A stretch of 64,000 nt of DNA from Candidatus Rokuibacteriota bacterium (lineage in GTDB: Bacteria > Methylomirabilota > Methylomirabilia > Rokubacteriales > CSP1-6): the NCBI GenBank assembly GCA_016200085.1, contig JACQFL010000050.1, positions 115,088 through 179,087 of the forward strand. Reading direction: 5' to 3'. Shown here piece after piece: positions 208 to 39,771 of this stretch. The notes beneath the pieces are model-generated. The model ran no database searches. It was not told the DNA's origin and worked only from the letters and a program-made list of their open reading frames with translations. Numbering within the stretch: position 1 is the stretch's first letter; each line of letters opens with the position of its first letter. Position numbers and translations under genes: made by a program.

Positions 208-1520
208 TGACCTACGCCGAGGCGGTGGCGCGGCTCCTCGCGCTCCGCGGCGGCGAGTACACCGGGATGAAGCCCGGGCTCGAGCGGATCGAGGCCCTCC
301 TGGACGCCCTCGGGCACCCCGAGCGGGCCTACACGATCGCCCAGGTGGGCGGCACCAACGGCAAGGGCTCGGTCTGCGCCCTGCTCGCCGCCGCGCTGAA
401 GGCGGCCGGCCGCCGGGTCGGGCTGTACACCTCGCCCCACCTCGTGTCGTTCCGCGAGCGCATCCGGATCGACGGCGCCGCCATCGCCGAGGACGCGGTC
501 GCCGACGGGGTCGACGCGCTCGGCACGCTCTGTGCCCGCGTCGACGCCAGCGTCTTCGAGGCCACCACCGCGCTGGCCCTCGATCACTTCGCCCACGAAG
601 GCGTCGAGGTCGCCGTCCTCGAGGTCGGGCTCGGGGGCCGCTTCGACGCCACGACGGTCGGCCGGCCCGCCGTCAGCGTGCTCGGGCCCATCGACCTCGA
701 CCACCGCGAGTTCCTCGGCGACGCCCTCGAGGACATCGCCCGCGAGAAGGCCGCGATCATCCGGTCGGGCATCGCGGTGACGGCGGCGCAGGCCCCGGCG
801 GCGCAGGCGATCCTCGAGGCGCGCGCGGCCGAGGTCGGCGTGCCGCTGCTGCGCGAGGGCCACGAGCTCGCCGTCGAGGTCCTGGCGGCCGACGCGGCCG
901 GGCAGCGTCTGACCTGCCGCGGGCCCGGCTGGACGCTCGCCGATCTCGAGATCCGGCTGGCCGGCGCCTACCAGCCCGGTAACGCGCTGCTCGCCGTCAC
1001 CGCCGCGCGAGAGCTCGGGGCCCCGGAGGCGGCCATCCGCGCGGGGCTGGCCCGCGCCCGCTGGCCGGGGCGCTTTCAGGTGATCGCCGGTGAGCCCACG
1101 CTCGTCCTCGACGGTGCTCACAACCCGGCCGGCGCTCGGGCGCTCGCCGCCTCGCTGGCGCGCGTGTTTCCCGGGCGCGCCGTCACCCTCGTGATCGGCG
1201 TGCTGCGCGACAAGGACGCCCGGGGCATCGTCGCGGCGCTGACGCCCGTCGTCCGGCGCTGGATCGTCACCGCGCCGTCGAGCCGCCGGGCGCTGCCGGC
1301 AACCGATCTGGCGGGGCGCCTGCCCCCCGGTGTTGATGTCCGGGTGGCGGCGACCGTCGGGGAAGCCCTAGGGATGGCCACCCGCCCGGTCACGACCCCC
1401 ATTGTTTGTGTTGCGGGCTCGCTCACCGTCATCGGCGAAGCGCTCCGCACGCTGGGGAATGGCGATAAACCTTGCCCCGTGGAAAAGGGGGCTGATAGCA
1501 TGGAGTCCCTTTATTGGTGA
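204..1520 (+). CDS. folC: bifunctional folylpolyglutamate synthase / dihydrofolate synthase
   Basis: 438-aa ORF with the Mur-ligase P-loop GGTNGKGS, plus [17 protein letters not shown] and the DGAHNP motif typical of FolC. Confidence 0.85.
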
Positions 1521-1538
1521 GGACTTTCGAGACACTCA

Positions 1539-3773
1539 ATGACCCGCTTCCGCTCCGCCGTCGTGATCCTGGCCGGCCTCGTCCTGGTCGGGCCTTCTGT
1601 CGCGTCCGCGCAGATCACCCCGCCCCTCGGCGTGGCGCCCCCGACCTCGTCCCCGGGGGTGCCGGCAGCCGCCGCGCCCCCGGCGCCGGTCACCGTCACG
1701 ACCTCGGCCGGCGACGTGACCGTGATCGCCGACCGGATGGAGGAGGTCGCGCCCAGCAACCTCGTGGTGGCCACCGGCAACGTCGAGGTCACGAAAGGGA
1801 CCACGCGCCTGACGGCCGACCGGGTGGAGATCAACCGGGAGTCGGGTGACACCGTGGCAGTGGGCCGCCCCCTCCTCTACGACGGCCAGGACCGCCTGAC
1901 CGGCGACCGCATCGACTACAACTTGAAGACGGGCAGCGGGGTCATCCATCACGGCGAGGTCCACACTTCGCCCTACTACCGGATCGCCGGCGAGCGCCTG
2001 GAGCGCCTGGGCGAGGGTGTCTACCGGATCCGCCGCGGGATCTTCACCACGTGCGAAGACGACCCGCCCACGTGGTCCTTCCGCGCGGCGGACGCCACCG
2101 CCGATCTGGAAGCGGCGATCTACGGCACGAACGCCTCGCTGTGGGTCAAGAACGTGCCCGTGGTGCCGTATCTGCCGTTCTTCGCGGCGGCGCTCCGGCG
2201 CGAGCGACAGACTGGCTTCCTCGCGCCGCGCTTCGGCGACTCCTCGCGCAAGGGCGCCTTCACCGAGATCCCGTTCTTCTGGGCCATCTCCGACAGTCAG
2301 GACGCGACGGTGACGCTCGACGCCTACCAGAAGCGCGGCGTCGGCCTGAACCTCGAGTACCGCAACTACTTCTCGTCGACGGACAAGCTCGAAGCCACGG
2401 GCTTCTTCATCCACGAGAGCGAGGTCCGCGGCACGCTCAATCGCGGCTGGTGGGGCCTCAAGGACAGCGACGTCATCAGTCCCGGCTTCGTTCTCAAGGC
2501 CGACATCAACGGCGTCTCCGACGACGCCATCTTCCAGGACTACGCCGACCGGCTGCACTTCCGCAGCGCGCAGCGCGTCGAGTCGAACGTGTTCCTCACC
2601 AAGAGCTTCCCGACCTGGAACGTCGTCGGCAACCTGTTCTGGTACCAGGACTTGACCACCAGGCGGCCCATCGAGCTCTACCGGCTGCCCGACCTCCGCG
2701 CGGAGGCGGTCCGCCAACCCGTCCCCATTCCGGGGCTCCAGTCGTTCCTGTACGAGGGGCAGGCGAGCGCGGTGCGCTTCGTGCGGGAGCTCGGCTCGGA
2801 CGGCACCCGGCTCGATCTGCACCCGCGCCTCTCGCGCCCCATCTCCCTGCAGGGCTTCGCCACCGTCACGCCGTTCGTGGGCCTGCGCACCACGAGCTAC
2901 GACCGGACCGTGGTGGGCGAGCGGACGACCGCGGACGGCGCCACCGTCGAGAAGACCAGGGACGAGGTGCGCACGCGGGCCCTGAGCGAGATCGGAGCGG
3001 ATTTCGAGACCCGCGCCTCGCGGATCTTCGACGTGGGAGGCGCCGGCAACATCGACGCGATCCTGCACACCATCGAGCCGCGCGTCAACTACACGTGGGT
3101 CGAAGGCACCACGTTCAAGCACCTGCCGCTGTGGACGCCGGGGGTGGATGACATCCAGCCCTCGAGCACCTTCACGTACTCGCTCACGAACCGGCTCCGC
3201 GCACGCACCGTCGCCCCGGAGGGGACGGAGCCGGCGCGCTGGGAGCTCGCGCGCTTCGTCCTCTCCCAGACGGCCAACATGGAGAGCACCGCGCGGACGT
3301 TCGGGCCCGTCACCGCGGACCTCATCGTCGATCCCAACCGGATCTTTCGGTTCCGCGCCACCGGCAGCGTCGATCCCTACGGTCATGGTCACGCCGTGCA
3401 GTCGACGACGACCGACCTTTTCATTCGATATGATCCCATCGTGGCTTCCATCGGCACCCGCGCCAGCCAGCCCGACAAGGTGAACTTCCTGCAGGGGGGG
3501 CTCACCGCGGAGATCAATCGCTACCTGGTCGGGCGGTTCACCACCAACTGGGACCTGCGCACCGACACGTTCCTCGAGAACCGCGTGGGCGTCGACGCGA
3601 GGTTCGATTGTTACGCGCTCACGGTGGAGGTGGTGACCCGCAACAAGAGCGAGAACGAGATCCGGTTCGCGCTCACGCTCCTGGGCGTCGGCTCGCCGCT
3701 CGCCTCCGGGACCAAGGTGGGCCCGGGCGGCTTCGGCGCGGGCACCACCGGGGCGGAGAACCGCCTGCGGTGA
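1539..3773 (+). CDS. lptD: LPS-assembly outer-membrane protein LptD (OstA family)
   Basis: 744 aa. N-terminal signal peptide (MTRFRSAVVILAGLVLVGPSVASAQ), an OstA N-terminal domain (VIADRMEEV...GNVEVTKGTTRLTADRVEI) and a long beta-barrel-like C-terminal region. Confidence 0.85.
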   Translation: MTRFRSAVVILAGLVLVGPSVASAQITPPLGVAPPTSSPGVPAAAAPPAPVTVTTSAGDVTVIADRMEEVAPSNLVVATGNVEVTKGTTRLTADRVEINRESGDTVAVGRPLLYDGQDRLTGDRIDYNLKTGSGVIHHGEVHTSPYYRIAGERLERLGEGVYRIRRGIFTTCEDDPPTWSFRAADATADLEAAIYGTNASLWVKNVPVVPYLPFFAAALRRERQTGFLAPRFGDSSRKGAFTEIPFFWAISDSQDATVTLDAYQKRGVGLNLEYRNYFSSTDKLEATGFFIHESEVRGTLNRGWWGLKDSDVISPGFVLKADINGVSDDAIFQDYADRLHFRSAQRVESNVFLTKSFPTWNVVGNLFWYQDLTTRRPIELYRLPDLRAEAVRQPVPIPGLQSFLYEGQASAVRFVRELGSDGTRLDLHPRLSRPISLQGFATVTPFVGLRTTSYDRTVVGERTTADGATVEKTRDEVRTRALSEIGADFETRASRIFDVGGAGNIDAILHTIEPRVNYTWVEGTTFKHLPLWTPGVDDIQPSSTFTYSLTNRLRARTVAPEGTEPARWELARFVLSQTANMESTARTFGPVTADLIVDPNRIFRFRATGSVDPYGHGHAVQSTTTDLFIRYDPIVASIGTRASQPDKVNFLQGGLTAEINRYLVGRFTTNWDLRTDTFLENRVGVDARFDCYALTVEVVTRNKSENEIRFALTLLGVGSPLASGTKVGPGGFGAGTTGAENRLR

Positions 3774-7072: not shown

Positions 7073-9718
7073 ATGCCGAGCCAGGTCGCCGTCCTGCGCA
7101 CGCGCCCCGAGACCGTCGTCGAGGACTACGGGCGCCTCATGCGGCTGGTGAAGTACGACCAGATCCTCTCGCGCGACACCGATCTCATCCTCAAGCTGAA
7201 CCTCTCGTGGACGAAGTACTTCCCGGCGTGCTCGAGCCAGCCCTGGCAGGTCGACGGCATCCTCAAGACGCTGGTCGACGACGGCTACGAGCGGCGGCGC
7301 CTGCTCCCCGTCGAGAACAAGACCGTGGTCACCAACCCCGACGAGGGCTGCCGCGCCAACAAGTGGCGGCCCGTGCTCCAGCGCCACGGCGTCGGCTTCA
7401 CCGCGCTGCCCGACGTCGAGTGGATCGTCTATCCGTTCAGGTCGCCCCTGCTGAAGCTCAACCGGATCTTTCCCGAGGGCATCCAGATCCCGAAGCTGTA
7501 CCCGGGCAAGAACGTGCTCCACCTGCCCACCGTGAAGTGCGTCCATCCAGATACGGAGATCTTGCTCAGCGACGGCAGATTGATTGGTGCTGAGAGCCTC
7601 GTGAAGGAGTGGCAGGTTCGGGAGCCCGTGCAGTGGCTGCCTGACGGCGATGCCGTCAGTGAAGGTGAGACGAGCGTGGTCTCACTTCGACCAGACGGGC
7701 TCCGCGGTGATCATGCCACCCACTTCTGGCGTACCCCGGTGACCGATGGGCTCGTGTGTGCCATCCGGACTCGTACTGGTCGGCAGGTGACGACATCGAC
7801 GGCACACCCATTCCTTACGCCTGAGGGTTGGAAGCGCGCGACAGACATACGTGTCGGCGACAGAATCGCGGTGGCCCGAAGAATTAGAATTCAAGGTCGC
7901 AGCCAACCGTTGCCCGCAGTCCCAGCGCTGGGCCACGACTCGCTCGATCTCGAGCAGTTGGAGTTTGAGGAGCAACCGCGGTTAACCGTACACGCCCAGC
8001 GCTCGATTGTTCGTGACTATCTCGACGGCGAAACGGTCGCGGAGATCGCTCGCAGGCTTCATGTGGGGCGAAAGATAGTACTGCGATTGCTCGACCGGTG
8101 CGGTGTCACTCTACGTGGTCCGTGGGTGTGGGCCCGTGTTCCCGGCGAGACATCGACGGACTTTTGGCGCTGGATGGGCTACTTCGTTGCGGAGGGTTGG
8201 GCGAGAGAGAACCATGGGTCGTTGGCGATCAACGTCGCCAACAACGATCCCGAGATCCGATCTGATTACATGGCTTTGTGCAAATCGCTATTCGGAGTAT
8301 TGCCTAGAGAGAACGCTGGGACGCTGCGGTTTAATGCCTCGAATTTGAGAAGCTTGTTCGCGCATCTCGGTTTTCGTCCGCCGACGAACGCTGCGACGAA
8401 GCATGTGCCCGATGTGTTGTTCAAGTGCCCCGATGAGGAAATCTCGGGATTCCTATCGGGGTACTTCGACGGGGACGGCACAGTTGGACCCGACGGTGTA
8501 CACGCAACCACGAAGAGTCCGCGCTTGGCCAGTCAGATCCAGATGCTGCTGGCGCGTCTCGGTGTACTCGCGTTTGTAGGTGTGTCGCGCTGCAAGGCCA
8601 CCAATCGCCCATGGACGAAGACTCAGGACTACGCAAAGATCTCGATCTATGGGCAGGATGTCGTTACATTCGCGCGTTGGGTCGGGTTTCGTTGCGCCCG
8701 CAAGCGAGCCCGGCTCCAAGAACTGGTACGTCGGCGGGCGAACGGCAGGCAACCAAGTCACTGGGATACTGTTCCAGTGCCTCCCGCTTTGTTTCGATTC
8801 GTGCGGGAGGGGCTCAAGATCACCCATCGCAGTTCGGAACGCCAGAGTGCGGTCAGCAACATTGAATGGAAACATACTGAACCTACTCGACCAGTCGTTC
8901 AGTATTTCGTTGATCTATTCGAACGACATGATACGAGCGGCCGTTTCCGCGATGAGATCGCGTATATGCGCTACCTCGCGCAAGACGACATTGCGTGGGA
9001 TCGAGTGTCGGACAAGGCTGAAAAGGCAGCTGAAGTCCCGTACCTCTACGATCTTTCAGTACGCGATTCGCGGTCGTTTATCGGCAACGGAATCGTTCTC
9101 CATAACACCCACGGCCACTCTGTCACAACGGGAGCGATAAAGAACAGCTTCGGAGGCTTGCTGAAGGAAGCCCGACACTATGCTCATGAGTTTATGCATG
9201 ACGTACTGGTTGACCTCATGTATATGCAGCGTGAGATCCATCCAGCCGCTCTGGCGGTGATGGACGGGACGGTCATGGGCGACGGCGCCGGCCCCCGTAC
9301 GATGGTGCCGCGCGAGGGCAACCTGATCCTGGCCTCGGCGGACCAGGTCGCCATCGACGCCATCGCCGCGCGGATCATGGGCTTCGACCCGCTCGCCATC
9401 CCGTACCTCCGGATGTGCCACGAGCGCGGGCTCGGGGTGGCGGACCCCCGCGACATCGAGATCGTCGGCGACGAGGACGCGGCGCGGGTCAGCATGGGCT
9501 TCAAGACCAGCCGCAGCCTGGTGATCTGGGGCGACCAGCTCATCCGGCGCGGCCCGCTCAGGCCGCTCAAGCGCCTGCTGCTGCACTCCCCCCTGGTGGT
9601 CTGGGCCCCCTTCGCCTCGAACGTCTACCACGACCTGCTCTGGTACCCGACGGTCGGCCGCGCCCGCATCCGCGCCTTCCGCGCCACGCCCTGGGGAGCC
9701 CTCTTCGAGAAGTACTGA
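7073..9718 (+). CDS. DUF362-family protein interrupted by an in-frame intein (precursor 881 aa; predicted spliced product ~358 aa)
   Basis: The N-extein (155 aa, ...ILKLNLSW...KNVLHLPTVK) and C-extein (203 aa, THGHSVTTGAIKNSFGGLL...VMDGTVMGDGAGP...) join to a normal DUF362-like protein. The internal 523 aa have intein splice-junction and LAGLIDADG motifs. Confidence 0.8.
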   Translation: MPSQVAVLRTRPETVVEDYGRLMRLVKYDQILSRDTDLILKLNLSWTKYFPACSSQPWQVDGILKTLVDDGYERRRLLPVENKTVVTNPDEGCRANKWRPVLQRHGVGFTALPDVEWIVYPFRSPLLKLNRIFPEGIQIPKLYPGKNVLHLPTVKCVHPDTEILLSDGRLIGAESLVKEWQVREPVQWLPDGDAVSEGETSVVSLRPDGLRGDHATHFWRTPVTDGLVCAIRTRTGRQVTTSTAHPFLTPEGWKRATDIRVGDRIAVARRIRIQGRSQPLPAVPALGHDSLDLEQLEFEEQPRLTVHAQRSIVRDYLDGETVAEIARRLHVGRKIVLRLLDRCGVTLRGPWVWARVPGETSTDFWRWMGYFVAEGWARENHGSLAINVANNDPEIRSDYMALCKSLFGVLPRENAGTLRFNASNLRSLFAHLGFRPPTNAATKHVPDVLFKCPDEEISGFLSGYFDGDGTVGPDGVHATTKSPRLASQIQMLLARLGVLAFVGVSRCKATNRPWTKTQDYAKISIYGQDVVTFARWVGFRCARKRARLQELVRRRANGRQPSHWDTVPVPPALFRFVREGLKITHRSSERQSAVSNIEWKHTEPTRPVVQYFVDLFERHDTSGRFRDEIAYMRYLAQDDIAWDRVSDKAEKAAEVPYLYDLSVRDSRSFIGNGIVLHNTHGHSVTTGAIKNSFGGLLKEARHYAHEFMHDVLVDLMYMQREIHPAALAVMDGTVMGDGAGPRTMVPREGNLILASADQVAIDAIAARIMGFDPLAIPYLRMCHERGLGVADPRDIEIVGDEDAARVSMGFKTSRSLVIWGDQLIRRGPLRPLKRLLLHSPLVVWAPFASNVYHDLLWYPTVGRARIRAFRATPWGALFEKY
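7538..9106 (+). mobile_element. intein with LAGLIDADG homing-endonuclease domain (523 aa) inserted in the DUF362 gene
   Basis: Starts with Cys (CVHPDTEILLSDG). Block-B TxxH is present (TTSTAHPFLTPEGW). LAGLIDADG motifs are WMGYFVAEGW and SGYFDGDGTV. The intein ends GIVLHN and is followed by Thr (+1 nucleophile). Local GC is clearly lower than the flanks. Confidence 0.8.
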
Positions 9719-34165: not shown

Positions 34166-34643
34166 CGCCGCCGTCCCCGCGCGCGGCGCCCTCGATCGCG
34201 TCGCGCTCGCCCTGGCCACCGTCCTCGGCGCCGGTTACTCGCCGGTGGCGCCGGGCACCGCGGGCAGCGTCGTCGCGCTGGCCATCCTCTGGCTCGTCCC
34301 GTTCTCGCGGGCGGCGCTGGTCGGCTGGCTCGTGGCGGTCACGGTGGCCGGGACCCTGGCGGCCCACCGCGCCGAGCGCCTGCTCGGGGTCAAGGATCCC
34401 GGCGCGATCGTCATCGACGAGGTGGCGGGGATGACGCTCTCCGTCCTCGCGCTGCCGCGCACGCCCGCCGTGCTGCTGACGGCCTTCGTGCTCTTCCGCC
34501 TCTTCGACGTCGTCAAGCCCTTCCCCGCGCGCGCGAGCCAGCGCCTGGGGGGCGGGGTCGGGGTGATGATCGACGACCTCATCGCCGGCGCGTACGCGCT
34601 CGCCGTGGTCGCCGCGCTTCGCCGGATCGCCGGATGGCCGTGA
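34158..34643 (+). CDS. pgpA: phosphatidylglycerophosphatase A
   Basis: GAGYSPVAPGTAGS...VIDEVAGM...FRLFDVVKPFP are PgpA family motifs. 161 aa. Confidence 0.85.
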   Translation: MPDAAVPARGALDRVALALATVLGAGYSPVAPGTAGSVVALAILWLVPFSRAALVGWLVAVTVAGTLAAHRAERLLGVKDPGAIVIDEVAGMTLSVLALPRTPAVLLTAFVLFRLFDVVKPFPARASQRLGGGVGVMIDDLIAGAYALAVVAALRRIAGWP

Positions 34644-35878
34644 CGCCGGCCGCGCGCGTGGTGACGGTGGGCGTGCCACCGACCGGGGCGCTGCTCGATC
34701 CCGACGGCGCCGCCGTCGCCGCCGCGCTCGAGGCCGCCGGGGTGCCCGTCGCCATGCGCGTGTTCGTCGACGACGACGAGACCGCGCTCGAGCAGGCGCT
34801 GGCGTCCGCGGTGGCGCTCACGGTCGTCCTCGCGGGCGATGGCGGCTCGGCCGGCGACGTCGTCCGCCGCGTGGTCGCCCGGCTCGCCGGCACGCGCCTC
34901 GTGCTCAACGACCGGATGCTCGCCGCGCTCGAGGAGCACTACCGTCGCGGCGACCGGCCGCTGCCCCGGCGCGCCGAGCGTCTTGCCCTCCTGCCCCAGG
35001 GCGCCTCCGTGTGGCTGGTCGACCACGGCGAGCCGGGCTGGGCGGTGGACGCCGGCGGGCGCGCGTTCATCGTGCTGCCGCGGGGCGGTCCGCTGGCGCC
35101 CGCGCTCCGCCAGCAGCTCACCGACTACGTGGCCGATCACGTGCCGGCGCGCGGCACGGTCGCGGTCAGGACGCTCCGGACGGCCGGGGTGTCGCTCGCC
35201 GCGCTCGAGGATCGCCTCGCGGCGTGGATCGGCCGGGAGGGCGGCGTCGCTGTCAGCGTCGTGCCGGCGGCGGGCGAGGTGTGGGTGCGGCTGCGCGCGC
35301 GCGGCCAGACCCCCTCGGCGGCCGCGGAGGCCGTCGAGCGGGCCGAGACGGAGATCCGGGGACTCCTCGGCCCCGACTGCTTCGGTCGTGACGAGGAGAC
35401 GCTCGAGCAGGCGGTGGCCCGTCGACTCCTGGCGCGGGGGCTCACCCTCTCGGTTGCGGAGTCGTGCACGGGCGGGCTGCTCGGCCATCGCCTCACCAGC
35501 GTGCCGGGCTCGTCGCGCTACTTCGAGCGCGGGGTCCTCGTGTACTCCAACGAGGCCAAGCAGGAGATGCTCGGGGTTCCCGAGGTGATCCTGCGAGCGC
35601 ACGGCGCCGTGAGCGCCCCGTGCGCCGAGGCGATGGCCCGCGGGATCGCCGAGCGCAGCCGGACCGCCTGCGGCCTCAGCATCACCGGGATCGCGGGTCC
35701 CGACGGCGGCACCCCGACCAAGCCGGTCGGCACGGTGTTCATCGGCCTCGCCACCCCGGGCCACCTCGCGGCCCGTCACTTCCTCTTCAGCGGCGATCGC
35801 GCGGCGGTGAAGTGGCAGTCCACGCAGATGGCGCTCGACATGCTGCGCCGGGCGCTCGAGGAGGACTCGACGCCATAG
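34634..35878 (+). CDS. cinA: competence/damage-inducible protein CinA
   Basis: The C-terminal CinA domain (LSVAESCTGGLLGHRLTSVPGSSRYFERGVLVYSNEAKQEMLGV) follows an N-terminal MoCF-like domain. Confidence 0.85.
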   Translation: MAVTPAARVVTVGVPPTGALLDPDGAAVAAALEAAGVPVAMRVFVDDDETALEQALASAVALTVVLAGDGGSAGDVVRRVVARLAGTRLVLNDRMLAALEEHYRRGDRPLPRRAERLALLPQGASVWLVDHGEPGWAVDAGGRAFIVLPRGGPLAPALRQQLTDYVADHVPARGTVAVRTLRTAGVSLAALEDRLAAWIGREGGVAVSVVPAAGEVWVRLRARGQTPSAAAEAVERAETEIRGLLGPDCFGRDEETLEQAVARRLLARGLTLSVAESCTGGLLGHRLTSVPGSSRYFERGVLVYSNEAKQEMLGVPEVILRAHGAVSAPCAEAMARGIAERSRTACGLSITGIAGPDGGTPTKPVGTVFIGLATPGHLAARHFLFSGDRAAVKWQSTQMALDMLRRALEEDSTP

Positions 35879-36438
35879 CGATCCGCGCGTTCGTCGCCGT
35901 CCTGCTGCCGGACGACGTGCGCATGGCCCTGGCTCGCGAGGTCGGCCGGCTCCAGCCCGTCGCCTCCAACGTGGCGTGGGTCGGGGCCGACCACCTCCAC
36001 GTCACCCTCAAGTTCCTCGGGGCGACCGACGAGGACCGCCTGCCCGCCGTCCGCGAGGCGCTGGCCCGCGCCGCGGGGACCGCCTCCGCCTTCACCCTCG
36101 CCCTGCGGGGCCTCGGCGCGTTCCCCACGCCGTCGCGCCCGCGCGTGATCTGGGCGGGAGCGGCGGAGGGCGCCGGGGCGCTCGCCGCGCTCGCGGGGAC
36201 CGTCGACCGCGAGCTGGTGGCGCTCGGCGTGCCTCCCGAGACGCGGCCCTTCGCGTCGCACGTCACGCTGGGCCGGGTGCGCGAGCCCCGCCGTGCGCCC
36301 CGGCTCGCCGAGGCGCTCGCGACGGCCTCCGAGCGTGTGTTCGGGACCGTCACCGTCGACCGCCTGACGCTGATGCGCAGCGATCTGTCGCCGCGGGGAG
36401 CCCGCTACACCGAGCTGGCCGGCTTCGCACTCGGCTGA
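35875..36438 (+). CDS. thpR: RNA 2',3'-cyclic phosphodiesterase (2'-5' RNA ligase family)
   Basis: IRAFVAVLLPDDV...HVTLKF...HVTLGR carries two HxT/S motifs. No canonical start precedes the conserved N-terminus, so an ATA/ATC start or a local error is inferred. Confidence 0.7.
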   Translation: MAIRAFVAVLLPDDVRMALAREVGRLQPVASNVAWVGADHLHVTLKFLGATDEDRLPAVREALARAAGTASAFTLALRGLGAFPTPSRPRVIWAGAAEGAGALAALAGTVDRELVALGVPPETRPFASHVTLGRVREPRRAPRLAEALATASERVFGTVTVDRLTLMRSDLSPRGARYTELAGFALG

Positions 36439-36540: not shown

Positions 36541-36570
36541 TTGACTGGCCGTCGCCGCGCCCCCTAGAAT
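36541..36570 (+). promoter_or_regulatory. candidate sigma70-type promoter of recA (-35 TTGACT, 18-nt spacer, -10 TAGAAT)
   Basis: ttgactggccgtcgccgcgcccccTAGAAT lies ~68 nt upstream of the recA ATG. It is seen in the sequence only. Confidence 0.4.
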
Positions 36571-36637
36571 GCTCGTCGAGATCTCCCGCTGATGGGCCGG
36601 GCCTGATCGATCGAGCCGATAGATCAAGGAGCCGCGA

Positions 36638-38101
36638 ATGGCCGAAGTCAAGAGCGACCGGAAGCAAGCCCTCGACCTCGCGATCGCCCAGATCGAGCGG
36701 CAGTTCGGCAAGGGCGCGGTCATGCGCCTGGGCTCGGGATCCCCGCTGGAGGAGATCGCTTCCATTCCCACCGGGGCCCTCTCGCTCGACGTGGCCCTCG
36801 GCGTGGGCGGCCTGCCCCGGGGCCGGGTCAGCGAGATCTACGGCCCGGAGTCGTCGGGCAAGACCACCCTGGCCCTGCACGTCATCGCCGAGGCCCAGCG
36901 GCTGGGCGGCGTGGCGGCCTTCATCGACGCCGAGCACGCCCTCGACCCGATCTACGCGAAGAGGCTCGGGGTCAACATCGACGAGCTGCTGATCTCCCAG
37001 CCGGACACCGGCGAGCAGGCGCTCGAGATCGGCGAGACCCTGGTGCGCTCCAACGCCGTCGACGTCATCGTGGTCGACTCGGTGGCCGCCCTCGTGCCCC
37101 GCGCCGAACTGGACGGCGACATGGGCGACTCGCTCCCCGGCCTGCAGGCGCGGCTCATGTCCCAGGCCCTCCGCAAGCTCACCGCCGCCATCTCGCGCTC
37201 GGGCGCCGTCGTCATCTTCATCAACCAGATCCGCGAAAAGATCGGCGTCATGTTCGGGTGCTTTCACTACAGCACCCGCGTCGTCCTCGCCGACGGTCGG
37301 ACGGAGAAGATCGGCAAGATCGTCAACCAGCGGCTGCCGGTCGAGGTGCTGTCCTGGAATCCGGTCACGCGCAGGATCGAGCCGCGGCGTGTCGTGAACT
37401 GGTTCGACAACGGGCGTACCGAGGAGTTCGTCCAGTTCGAGGTCGAGGGAGGGCGCTCCGGTCGACGCTGCTTCGCCGCCACCGAGAACCATCTGATCTT
37501 CACGCCCGGTGGTCCAGTGAAAGCGTGTGATCTGCAGGCGGGTGATCACGTCTTGGTGTCCGTGGAAGACTTCTCACGCGCTGTCCCTGGACGCATCGTC
37601 AAGCGCTACGTCAAGCCCCCGACGCGCTCGATGCACCGGTTCGACATCGAGGTCGAGGGGCACCACACGTACCTGGTCGACGGAGTGGTGGTGCACAACT
37701 CGCCCGAAACCACATCGGGCGGGCGCGCGCTGAAGTTCTACGCCTCCATCCGGCTCGACGTGCGCCGCGTGGAGACGATCAAGCAGGGGACCGAAGCGGT
37801 GGGCGTGCGCACCAAGGTGAAGGTCGTCAAGAACAAGCTGGCGCCGCCGTTCCGCGAGGCGGAGTTCGACGTGATCTACGGCGAGGGCATCTCCAAGTCG
37901 GGCACCGTGCTCGACGCCGGCGTGGAGCAGGGACTCGTGGAGAAGTCCGGCACCTGGTACACGTACAAGGGCGAGCGCATCGGCCAGGGCCGCGAGAACG
38001 CCAAGAAGTGGCTGCAGGAGAACCAGCCGGTGCTCTTCGACCTCGAGGCGAAGCTCCGGGAGGCGCTCGGCCTCCGCGTGCCGGTCCCGCTGAAGGCCTG
38101 A
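36638..38101 (+). CDS. recA: recombinase RecA, interrupted by a mini-intein (precursor 487 aa; predicted spliced product ~340 aa)
   Basis: Walker A ([12 protein letters not shown]), [10 protein letters not shown], and ...KIGVMFG|[intein]|[23 protein letters not shown]. The exteins rejoin to the canonical RecA sequence. Confidence 0.9.
37259..37699 (+). mobile_element. RecA mini-intein (147 aa, no endonuclease domain) at the RecA-a site
   Basis: Starts [22 protein letters not shown]. Block B is [12 protein letters not shown]. It ends LVDGVVVHN, followed by Ser. Confidence 0.85.
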
Positions 38102-38103
38102 CC

Positions 38104-39273
38104 TTGGACTTCGACAAGCTGCTGACGACCGGCGTCTCCCGTGGCGCGTCCGACTTGCACCTCAAGCCCGACGCCGCGCCCGTGCTGCGCATCCACGGCC
38201 GCCTCGTCCCGCAGCCGGACCTCGGCGCCATCAGCCCGGAGTGGATGGAGTACGTGGCCCGCCGCGTCCTGCCCGAGAAGCTCTACGCCCAGCTCAAGGA
38301 AGGGCGCGAGGTCGACGTGGCCTACACGGTGCCGGCGTACGGCCGCTTCCGCGTGAACTTCTTCCTGGCCAGTCGCGTGATCCGCGCCGTGCTCCGCGCC
38401 ATCCCCGCCGACAAGGCCTCGTTCGAGGCGCTCGGGCTGCCGCCCGTGCTCGAGAAGCTGGTCATGGAGCGCCGCGGCCTGGTCCTCGTCACGGGCATCA
38501 GCGGCGCCGGCAAGTCGACCACGCTGGCCGCCATGATCGACTACATCAACCGCAAGCGGAACGACCACATCGTCACCATCGAAGACCCGATCGAGTTCAC
38601 CCACGACGATCAGAACTGCGTGATCACCCAGCGCGAGATCGGCACGGACTCGCCGGACTTCGCCACCGCGCTCCGCGCGGCGCTCCGCGAGGATCCGGAC
38701 GTCATCCTCGTGGGCGAGATGCGCGACGCCGAGACCATGGGCGTGGCGCTGCACGCCGCCGAGACCGGCCACCTGGTGTTCTCCACGCTGCACACCCTGA
38801 ACGCGATGGAGACGGTCAACCGCATGATCGGGATGTTCCCCGCGCACCAGGAGCAGCAGATCCGCGACCAGCTCGCCGCCGTGCTCCAGGGCATCGTCTC
38901 GCAGCGCCTCGTGCCGCGCGTGGGCGGCGAGAGCCGGGTGCCCGCGGTCGAGGTCATGGTGGGCAGCGCGCTCATCCGCGAGTGCATCCGCGAGTCCAAG
39001 CGCACCCCGGAGATCACCCAGGTCATCGCGGCCGGCCAGGCCGCCTACGGCATGCAGACCTTCGACCAGTCCGTCCTCACGCTCTATCGGGACGGAATCA
39101 TCGCCTACGAGACAGCGCTCGAGACGGCGACGAGCCCGGACGACTTCGCCCGCAGGGTGCGCGGCATCTTCTCGTCGTCCGAGATGGGCTTCGACCAGGG
39201 CGACAAGAAGCAGGAGGAGCGCCCCGCCGAGGTGCTCCGCACGCCCGCCACGCGTCCGTTCTCGCGGACGTAG
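38104..39273 (+). CDS. pilT: type IV pilus twitching-motility ATPase PilT/PilU family
   Basis: ASDLHLKPDAAPVLRIHG, Walker A (GISGAGKSTTLAAM) and a GEMRD Asp box. The start is inferred as TTG 38104 (or CTG 38098), immediately after the recA stop. Confidence 0.8.
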   Translation: MDFDKLLTTGVSRGASDLHLKPDAAPVLRIHGRLVPQPDLGAISPEWMEYVARRVLPEKLYAQLKEGREVDVAYTVPAYGRFRVNFFLASRVIRAVLRAIPADKASFEALGLPPVLEKLVMERRGLVLVTGISGAGKSTTLAAMIDYINRKRNDHIVTIEDPIEFTHDDQNCVITQREIGTDSPDFATALRAALREDPDVILVGEMRDAETMGVALHAAETGHLVFSTLHTLNAMETVNRMIGMFPAHQEQQIRDQLAAVLQGIVSQRLVPRVGGESRVPAVEVMVGSALIRECIRESKRTPEITQVIAAGQAAYGMQTFDQSVLTLYRDGIIAYETALETATSPDDFARRVRGIFSSSEMGFDQGDKKQEERPAEVLRTPATRPFSRT

Positions 39274-39384: not shown

Positions 39385-39771
39385 ATGCGCCGTCGCGGCG
39401 CTCCGGGGGACGTCGCCGACGAGGTCGCCGCCGACATGGTGGCGCGCGGCCACGTGGACGACGGCGCCTTCGCGCGCGCGTGGGTCGAGACCCGCGCCGC
39501 ACGCTACGGCCCGGCGCGCCTGCGCGCGGAGCTCCGGGCCAAGGGCGTGGCCGGGCCGTTGATCGAGGCCGCGCTGGCCGCCGCCACGGGCGAGCGCCAG
39601 CTCGAGCAGGCCCGGGCGCTGGCGCGCCGGCGGCTCGCCGCGCTCCGGCGCGCCGGCCCGGACCGCGCGGCGGCGCGCCTGCGCGACCACCTGCTGCGGC
39701 GAGGCTATCCGCCGTCGGTGGTGGGGCGCGTTCTCAAGGAGGTCCTTCCCGGGCTGCGGGAGGAAGGCTGA
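39385..39771 (+). CDS. recX: recombination regulator RecX (N-terminus probably extends upstream to ~39280 with a non-canonical start)
   Basis: MRRRGAPGDVADEVAADMVARGHVDDGAFARAWVE...LRAKGVAGPLIEAAL shows RecX helical repeats. The in-frame upstream VLDLRAARLVAADLLSRHAWTRATLAAR is also RecX-like but has no ATG/GTG/TTG. Confidence 0.7.
   Translation: MRRRGAPGDVADEVAADMVARGHVDDGAFARAWVETRAARYGPARLRAELRAKGVAGPLIEAALAAATGERQLEQARALARRRLAALRRAGPDRAAARLRDHLLRRGYPPSVVGRVLKEVLPGLREEG

Follow-up and report, generated by a model that had tools for sequence, protein, structure and literature searches.

A natural class 1 mini-intein at the RecA-b site of a Rokubacteria/Methylomirabilota-type recA gene, probably left by loss of a homing endonuclease

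The recA gene described here encodes a protein of 487 aa, 147 of which form an insert, and the question that it raises is what kind of element this insert is, which RecA intein site it occupies, and how a functional RecA could be obtained from the interrupted gene. All coordinates below refer to the window, which is the whole 64-kb stretch of DNA analysed.

An interrupted RecA precursor and its Hint-fold insert

In the open reading frame list and its translation, the recA precursor gene occupies 36638..38101 on the plus strand and comprises 487 codons and a stop. Precursor residues 208-354 are an insert of 147 aa (CFHYSTRV...VVVHN, Cys1 to Asn147; 37259..37699, plus strand), and the first-pass annotation, which had reported an insert of this size in RecA, was exact in coordinates, length and motifs. 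The N-extein of 207 aa (36638..37258, plus strand) contains the P-loop GPESSGKT (36842..36865, plus strand) and ends with GVMFG, at a point within the first half of L2, a DNA-binding loop. The C-extein of 133 aa (37700..38098, plus strand) starts with SPETTSGG, and its first residue is the nucleophile Ser+1 (37700..37702, plus strand). With a slash marking each splice point, the junctions read GVMFG/C...VHN/SPETT.

The Pfam RecA family matches the precursor in two stretches around the insert (E=5e-132), and RecA_C is also found (E=1.5e-22). When the exteins are joined, the resulting 340-aa product is colinear with intein-free RecA structures, as the earlier note had expected, and PDB alignments with E. 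coli, M. smegmatis and M. tuberculosis (Mtu) RecA run over the junction without a gap. Chance is of no concern, because the RecA match is split at the insert and the insert by itself has a match at E=5e-13. The further claim that functional RecA depends on removal of the insert was judged correct.

Several lines of evidence point to an intein of the Hint fold. In a phmmer search of PDB sequences with the insert alone, the best match was the Mtu RecA mini-intein (2in0, 3ifj, 5i0a; E=5e-13 over residues 11-147), followed by weaker matches to DnaX, CDC21, DnaE and DnaB inteins, and among Pfam families PT-HINT scored above threshold (6e-7) and Intein_splicing below it (3.8e-6). An AlphaFold model of the insert is all-beta, with a mean pLDDT of 91.5 and a pTM of 0.83; its input alignment (A5) consisted of N-terminal fragments and one mini-intein homologue, so that the C-terminal third was covered by that one homologue only. 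MAFFT alignments mixing N-terminal and C-terminal gene-call fragments were visibly misaligned and were left out. Foldseek placed the splicing domain of the Mtu RecA intein (3ifj) at the top of the PDB (TM 0.86/0.91, rmsd 2.3 Å, ~31% identity), with DnaB, DnaE and NrdJ inteins next, and the best 50 PDB matches are inteins, bacterial intein-like (BIL) domains or the Hedgehog autoprocessing domain. The Hint similarity anticipated in the first-pass annotation is thus present in sequence, Pfam and structure comparisons alike.

The catalytic residues are those of a class 1 intein. Cys1 is accompanied by block B, T75-E-N-H78 (TxxH; 37481..37492, plus strand), and by blocks F and G, F128-D129-IEVEGHHT...VVVH146-N147 (37640..37699, plus strand), a stretch nearly identical to the C-terminus of the Mtu intein, FDLEVEELHTLVAEGVVVHN. 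C1, T75, H78, D129, H146 and N147 are each invariant in 133 of 133 aligned RecA-b inteins, and they are among the 39 columns conserved at 95% or more in this 133-member alignment, all of which are kept in the window copy. With Cys1, TxxH, the block F Asp, the C-terminal His-Asn, Ser+1 and the Hint fold all in place, the insert is, as judged from its sequence, a class 1 intein, and splicing is predicted from the conserved residues. A BIL or pretoxin Hint domain was also considered, PT-HINT being the top Pfam match, and was set aside given a housekeeping host protein, a known intein site, and the terminal HN with Ser+1.

The surroundings of the gene are as follows. Upstream lie cinA (34634..35878) and a LigT/ThpR-type phosphoesterase (35776..36438), a promoter-like TTGACT-18 nt-TAGAAT (36541..36570, plus strand), read from the sequence by its resemblance to the consensus, and a Shine-Dalgarno-like AAGGAG (36626..36631, plus strand). 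A search of the upstream region for an SOS-box-like palindrome gave the short palindrome GATCGATC alone, which is not interpretable. Downstream are the ORF of a PilT-like T2SSE ATPase (38008..39273) and recX (39385..39771), and the order recA-pilT-like-recX is common to two related contigs (L161 and L162). A second intein, bearing an endonuclease as had been claimed, is found by Pfam elsewhere in the 64 kb, within an 881-aa DUF362 ORF (7073..9718, plus strand; DUF362 with Intein_splicing at 5e-19 and LAGLIDADG_3 at 8e-17).

Insertion site in DNA-binding loop L2

The first-pass annotation had placed the insert at the RecA-a site used by the Mtu RecA intein, and this assignment was wrong: on numbering transfer and comparison with published site-b hosts, the insertion is at RecA-b, the M. 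leprae-type site in loop L2. The transfer combined the coordinate ranges of the PDB match tables with published intein positions (PMC4513877, Table 1, Topilina et al. 2015), according to which the Mtu RecA intein lies at site a (residues 252-691) and site b is occupied in M. leprae (206-570), M. rhodesiae JS60 (207-570) and many other actinobacteria. Residue 192 of the spliced window protein pairs with residue 190 of the 350-aa Mtu RecA chain, and therefore Mtu numbering in this region equals the spliced numbering minus 2. Since the insertion follows spliced residue 207, the intein starts at about Mtu-type residue 206, which is site b.

The RecA-a equivalent, at the end of VVKNK (spliced residue 253), lies 46 residues downstream of the insertion and is uninterrupted; from the numbering transfer and PMC4513877 Table 1, this unoccupied site is K400/L401 of the precursor, in VVKNK/LAPPF (37835..37840, plus strand). 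An intein of the RecA-a allele would be inserted after VVKNK (Mtu residue 251) and be followed by Cys+1, and the window intein differs on both counts: the Mtu RecA intein carries Cys at +1 (PMC8529194), whereas Ser is found here. Its junctions are identical to those of the homologous 364-aa intein in M. rhodesiae JS60 (L063), and its splicing domain is 63-64% identical to those of M. rhodesiae JS60 and M. flavescens over residues 1-101. There is practically no chance that the insert is an Mtu-type intein at RecA-a, for although the Mtu splicing domain is its best match among solved structures (E=5e-13, ~31% identity, TM 0.86) and blocks F and G are closely alike, the position of the insertion, the intact VVKNK/LAPPF, Ser+1 in place of Cys+1, and an identity of 55-80% to RecA-b inteins elsewhere (N-terminal 100 residues) as against ~31% to Mtu refute that reading.

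By the offset to PDB 1n03, the E. coli-equivalent junction is G204/N205. In standard RecA numbering, this position is the middle of DNA-binding loop L2. With L2 interrupted, the unspliced precursor should not bind DNA normally.

The window intein can be set beside two groups of known RecA inteins. The RecA-b inteins of M. leprae (by published position), M. rhodesiae JS60 and M. flavescens share its insertion point in L2, and the site is also occupied in Thermomonospora curvata, Thiovulum and others (PMC4513877 Table 1); members of this group have in common with the window intein a homologous splicing domain, Cys1, TxxH, HN and Ser+1. The site-b inteins of that table are all 353-367 aa long and carry a LAGLIDADG endonuclease (PMC4513877 Table 1), in contrast to the 147 aa of the window intein, which is without one, and the published hosts are an actinobacterium, a proteobacterium or a cyanobacterium, whereas the window host, to judge by extein identity, is of Rokubacteria/Methylomirabilota type. 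The Mtu RecA intein (PI-MtuI) shares the host protein and much of blocks F and G, and its engineered mini forms (2in0, 3ifj, 5i0a) are endonuclease-deleted versions of 139 aa, a size comparable to that of the window intein. Apart from the site, the residue at +1 and the low identity, the two differ in that the Mtu mini forms are laboratory constructs and the window deletion is natural. A third case is the natural mini-intein of Acinetobacter baumannii RecA, of ~155 aa at site d (residues 216-370; PMC4513877 Table 1), which is likewise natural and in a bacterial RecA but is set apart from the window intein by its published position; it was not among the homologues listed as matches in protein, genome and metagenome searches with the window intein.

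Endonuclease loss within the RecA-b family

A protein search with the insert gave 142 matches, all of them fragmentary RecA gene calls of at most 258 aa. Among the 120 of these 142 that were listed, each one showing a junction has GVMFG/C or VVVHN/SPETT; several protein matches carry LAGLIDADG_2, and PF03161 matches also occur in database relatives. As the protein matches are fragments, intein lengths were measured on DNA loci. Relatives are encoded by at least 560 species genomes in a scan of one genome per species and by at least 492 stretches in a metagenome scan, and the query of the genome scan was the N-terminal 101 residues only, so that it carries no length bias. The closest among the genomes listed are Rokubacteria/Methylomirabilota MAGs (74-78% over the first 101 residues), and further hosts include Mycolicibacterium rhodesiae JS60, M. 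flavescens, Streptomyces, Saccharomonospora, Chromatium okenii, Armatimonadota, Acidobacteriota, Gemmatimonadota and a Heliomicrobium MAG. The family HMM matches the window intein at E=8.6e-83. On this sequence evidence the RecA-b family is very large, mostly endonuclease-bearing and spread over many phyla, and the window element is a new natural member of this known family that lacks the endonuclease and resides in a Rokubacteria/Methylomirabilota-type host.

No endonuclease Pfam family, LAGLIDADG or other, was detected in the 147-aa insert, and alignment to full-length relatives likewise bears out the earlier view of a mini-intein without an endonuclease domain. From 160 loci, 132 complete inteins were parsed, of which 112 are 340-370 aa long; in the genome set, nearly all those inspected have a LAGLIDADG motif. 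The remaining 20 are short forms of 141 aa (six), 164-185 aa (ten), 201 aa (one) and 234-239 aa (three). Of the 71 inteins parsed in the genome scan, 4 were shortened, and all 4 were longer than 147 aa. The four nearest relatives of the window splicing domain (79% identity) are all full-length, at 354-360 aa, and sit in host RecA proteins whose exteins are 83-88% identical to those of the window; the closest host by exteins among labelled genomes, a Methylomirabilia MAG (91%), also has a full-length intein.

The place of the deletion can be read from the alignment to relatives of 354-364 aa (L001, L003, L005, L025, L059, L063), in which the scar is E103-D-F-S-R-A-V-P110 (37565..37588, plus strand). 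The missing block of ~210 residues lies between ...VSVED(F/Y) and RAVP(G/A)RI... and includes both LAGLIDADG regions, and positions 1-105 and 315-356 of the family HMM match the window intein contiguously. The closest relative at the DNA level, contig Ga0643751_0052338 (L161), is 88% identical in nucleotide sequence, matching from the R108/A109 side of the scar on, and directly upstream of the matching part it still encodes an endonuclease tail, ...LESRRFL. It follows that the loss is younger than the split of the window and L161 lineages. When both ends of the deletion were searched for repeats or microhomology that might account for it, or for a collapse in assembly, only a weak, unconvincing resemblance of Y-R-L and Y-L-R codons was seen.

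Other natural short RecA-b inteins, from metagenomes and MAGs, share the site, the family and a complete or partial loss of the endonuclease. They comprise forms of 141 aa (L086-L092), 167-168 aa (L081-L085), 164-179 aa (L007, L084, L089, L093, L094), 201 aa (L095) and 234-239 aa (L014, L016, L020). The window intein, whose nearest relatives are all full-length, differs from these in where the deletion begins and ends and in what is left of the linker. Each of the short forms also has a full-length counterpart of its own; one of 168 aa (L081), for instance, is 92% identical to one of 360 aa (L102), and one of 239 aa (L014) is 92% identical to another of 360 aa (L127). The differing end points and separate full-length relatives indicate that endonuclease losses have been recurrent and independent.

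Identities of inteins and exteins do not run in parallel. In three loci (L097, L102, L104) the exteins are only 66-70% identical to those of the window and the inteins 77-79%, and in some hosts with 88-91% extein identity the inteins are no more similar than 77-79%. The histories of intein and host are therefore discordant, as expected of a homing element. GC3 in the window is 84% for the intein versus 96-97% for the exteins; low intein GC3 was rejected as a sign of recent transfer since it is a family-wide trait, the intein being lower than the exteins in 113 of 120 loci by a mean difference of 8.8 points.

Splicing, alternative readings and wider meaning

The explanation favoured by these comparisons, and a very probable one, is that the element is a class 1 RecA-b mini-intein in L2 that arose from a LAGLIDADG intein of ~355-360 aa by loss of the endonuclease. 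The ancestor would have carried a LAGLIDADG homing endonuclease, as inteins in related Rokubacteria/Methylomirabilota-type genomes do, and a single clean in-frame deletion of ~210 codons would have left the Hint splicing domain alone. The 487-aa precursor would then be translated and, as predicted for each step from the conserved residues, an N-S acyl shift at Cys1 would be followed by attack of Ser+1 on the thioester (trans-esterification), cyclisation of Asn147 helped by His146, T75/H78 and D129, and finally an O-N shift. The expected products are a RecA of 340 aa in which loop L2 is whole again and, released from it, the intein of 147 aa. Homing would no longer be possible for an intein without its endonuclease, and the occupied homing site would block re-invasion. 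Such an element can persist because its imprecise loss would destroy recA, and only a precise deletion leaves recA functional. The window intein is in this sense at the late 'degenerate' stage of the homing cycle, which is a textbook stage.

Autonomous splicing is nevertheless not to be presumed, and the E. coli assay suggested in the first-pass annotation could give a false negative, since the M. leprae intein, the only site-b intein studied so far, reportedly splices in its own host and in M. smegmatis but not in E. coli (PMC5874633).

The same host dependence gives room for an additional, rather doubtful reading, which adds to the mini-intein explanation without excluding it: that the mini-intein in L2 acts as a conditional or domesticated switch, RecA being inactive until a cue permits splicing. 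The cue would be redox state, metal, ssDNA, a host factor or some stress-specific signal. Conditional splicing is documented for recombinase inteins: it is shown for Pyrococcus RadA (PMC4513877), and two further papers describe splicing stimulated by ssDNA (PMC5238726) and conditional splicing, in the native host, of the Mtu RecA intein (PMC11377839); together with the behaviour of the M. leprae site-b intein (PMC5874633) and the presence of two extra cysteines, C71 and C90, in the window intein, these cases speak for a switch. Nothing in the sequence demands a regulatory role, however: C71 and C90 are absent from the conserved family columns, Ser+1 rules out a Cys1-Cys+1 disulfide trap, and recurrent independent endonuclease losses with varied linkers fit the neutral decay of a selfish element. 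If true, the switch reading would carry the host dependence of the M. leprae site-b intein, for which there is no explanation so far, over to an environmental phylum, and the window intein, being natural and compact (147 aa, Ser+1), would be a system in which to look for the cue.

It is very unlikely that the insert is a splicing-dead relic whose precursor never matures, with recA an effective pseudogene or backed up by another copy. Loss of the endonuclease does mark a degenerating element, the M. leprae relative does fail to splice in E. coli (PMC5874633), and with 64 kb of genome in view a second, intein-free recA could lie elsewhere. Against decay, the reading frame is intact across 487 codons, each family-invariant catalytic and structural residue is kept, and the predicted structure is a confidently modelled, complete Hint domain. 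The exteins, too, are 85-95% identical to those of relatives and show an extreme codon bias (GC3 of 96-97%), as for an expressed gene under selection, and the recA-pilT-like-recX neighbourhood is conserved.

An assembly artefact, in which a full-length allele was collapsed or made chimeric during metagenome assembly, is extremely unlikely. The exact 487-aa precursor has no record in the public gene index, so that the deletion is seen in one assembly, the nearest relatives are full-length, and assemblies often contain broken or frameshifted versions of recA genes with inteins (L162 and the fragmentary gene calls are examples). The deletion keeps the frame, though, and what it takes out is exactly one structural domain, at the point where the endonuclease is canonically inserted. 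Furthermore, the similarity between the two boundaries in relatives amounts to a few bases at most, far fewer than an assembler k-mer, and at least 20 independent contigs carry natural short forms of a comparable kind whose end points differ.

The RecA-b family is a natural series for the study of the homing cycle and of the minimal splicing domain, running from full-length inteins of ~360 aa through half-deleted forms of 234-239 aa and forms of 164-201 aa with remnant linkers to clean inteins of 147 and 141 aa. A natural RecA-b mini-intein of 147 aa with Ser+1 could also serve as a compact tool, and could be a tractable model for the host-dependent splicing reported for the M. leprae RecA intein.

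Shortened forms and codon composition of RecA-b inteins

Within one lineage, the intein at site b of RecA (RecA-b, the Mycobacterium leprae-type site that is occupied in the window) forms a graded decay series, in which splicing-domain identity stays at 86-92% throughout. The longest members (L102 and L011) have 360 aa, an intermediate of 201 aa (L095) retains the first LAGLIDADG motif, and the shortest (L081-L085, 167-168 aa) keep only an LTDDQ stub. Mini-inteins smaller than the 147-aa form of the window also occur, as a clade of 141-aa RecA-b mini-inteins from several soil metagenomes (L086-L092 and P0003) that lacks five residues of the pre-block-B loop and reads GGH-RFAAT there.

Codon composition was compared in the 120 loci with flanks among L001-L160, the DNA loci encoding RecA-b intein relatives. 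GC3 of the splicing domain was below that of its own recA exteins in 113 of them, with a mean gap of 8.8 points, and the endonuclease parts were lower still than the splicing domains (mean 79% vs 90% in exteins).

For RecA with this intein, the gene call in many database entries is split or cut short, so that protein-level surveys will undercount it. In the recA of L162 (4001..5842), a close relative on the long contig ERZ25039469:contig_114980, reading through the full-length intein needs two compensating frameshifts, which are probably sequencing errors.

Gene neighbourhood and a second intein

Upstream of recA, within 36541..36631, the sequence shows TTGACT-18 nt-TAGAAT, which resembles a promoter, and AAGGAG as a putative ribosome-binding site; a short palindrome, GATCGATC, lies at 36600..36617, and no SOS box is recognisable in 36541..36631. 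A PilT-like T2SSE ATPase gene (38008..39273, + strand) separates recA from recX, and this gene order is kept in the two closest relatives, L161 (PilT-like gene at 589..1761) and L162 (5852..7069), the latter having recX merged with alanyl-tRNA synthetase in a single gene call. If opened at GTG 38008, the PilT-like ORF would share 94 nt with the 3' end of recA, so its actual start codon probably lies beyond the recA stop.

The 881-aa ORF at 7073..9718 (+ strand) matches DUF362 (E=1.8e-15), Intein_splicing spanning residues 197-678 (E=5e-19) and the LAGLIDADG_3 endonuclease (E=8e-17), and holds the second intein of the window. GC3 over the entire ORF is 76%, vs 94-97% in adjoining genes.

Relationship to site-a RecA inteins

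Reviews describe the site-a and site-b RecA inteins as differing in sequence. Among all solved inteins, the best match to the site-b intein of the window is the site-a RecA intein of M. tuberculosis (PDB 2in0/3ifj), and blocks F and G (37640..37699) are nearly identical to their counterpart in that intein, FDLEVEELHTLVAEGVVVHN. Together, these similarities hint that the RecA-a and RecA-b alleles share a common ancestry despite their different insertion sites.
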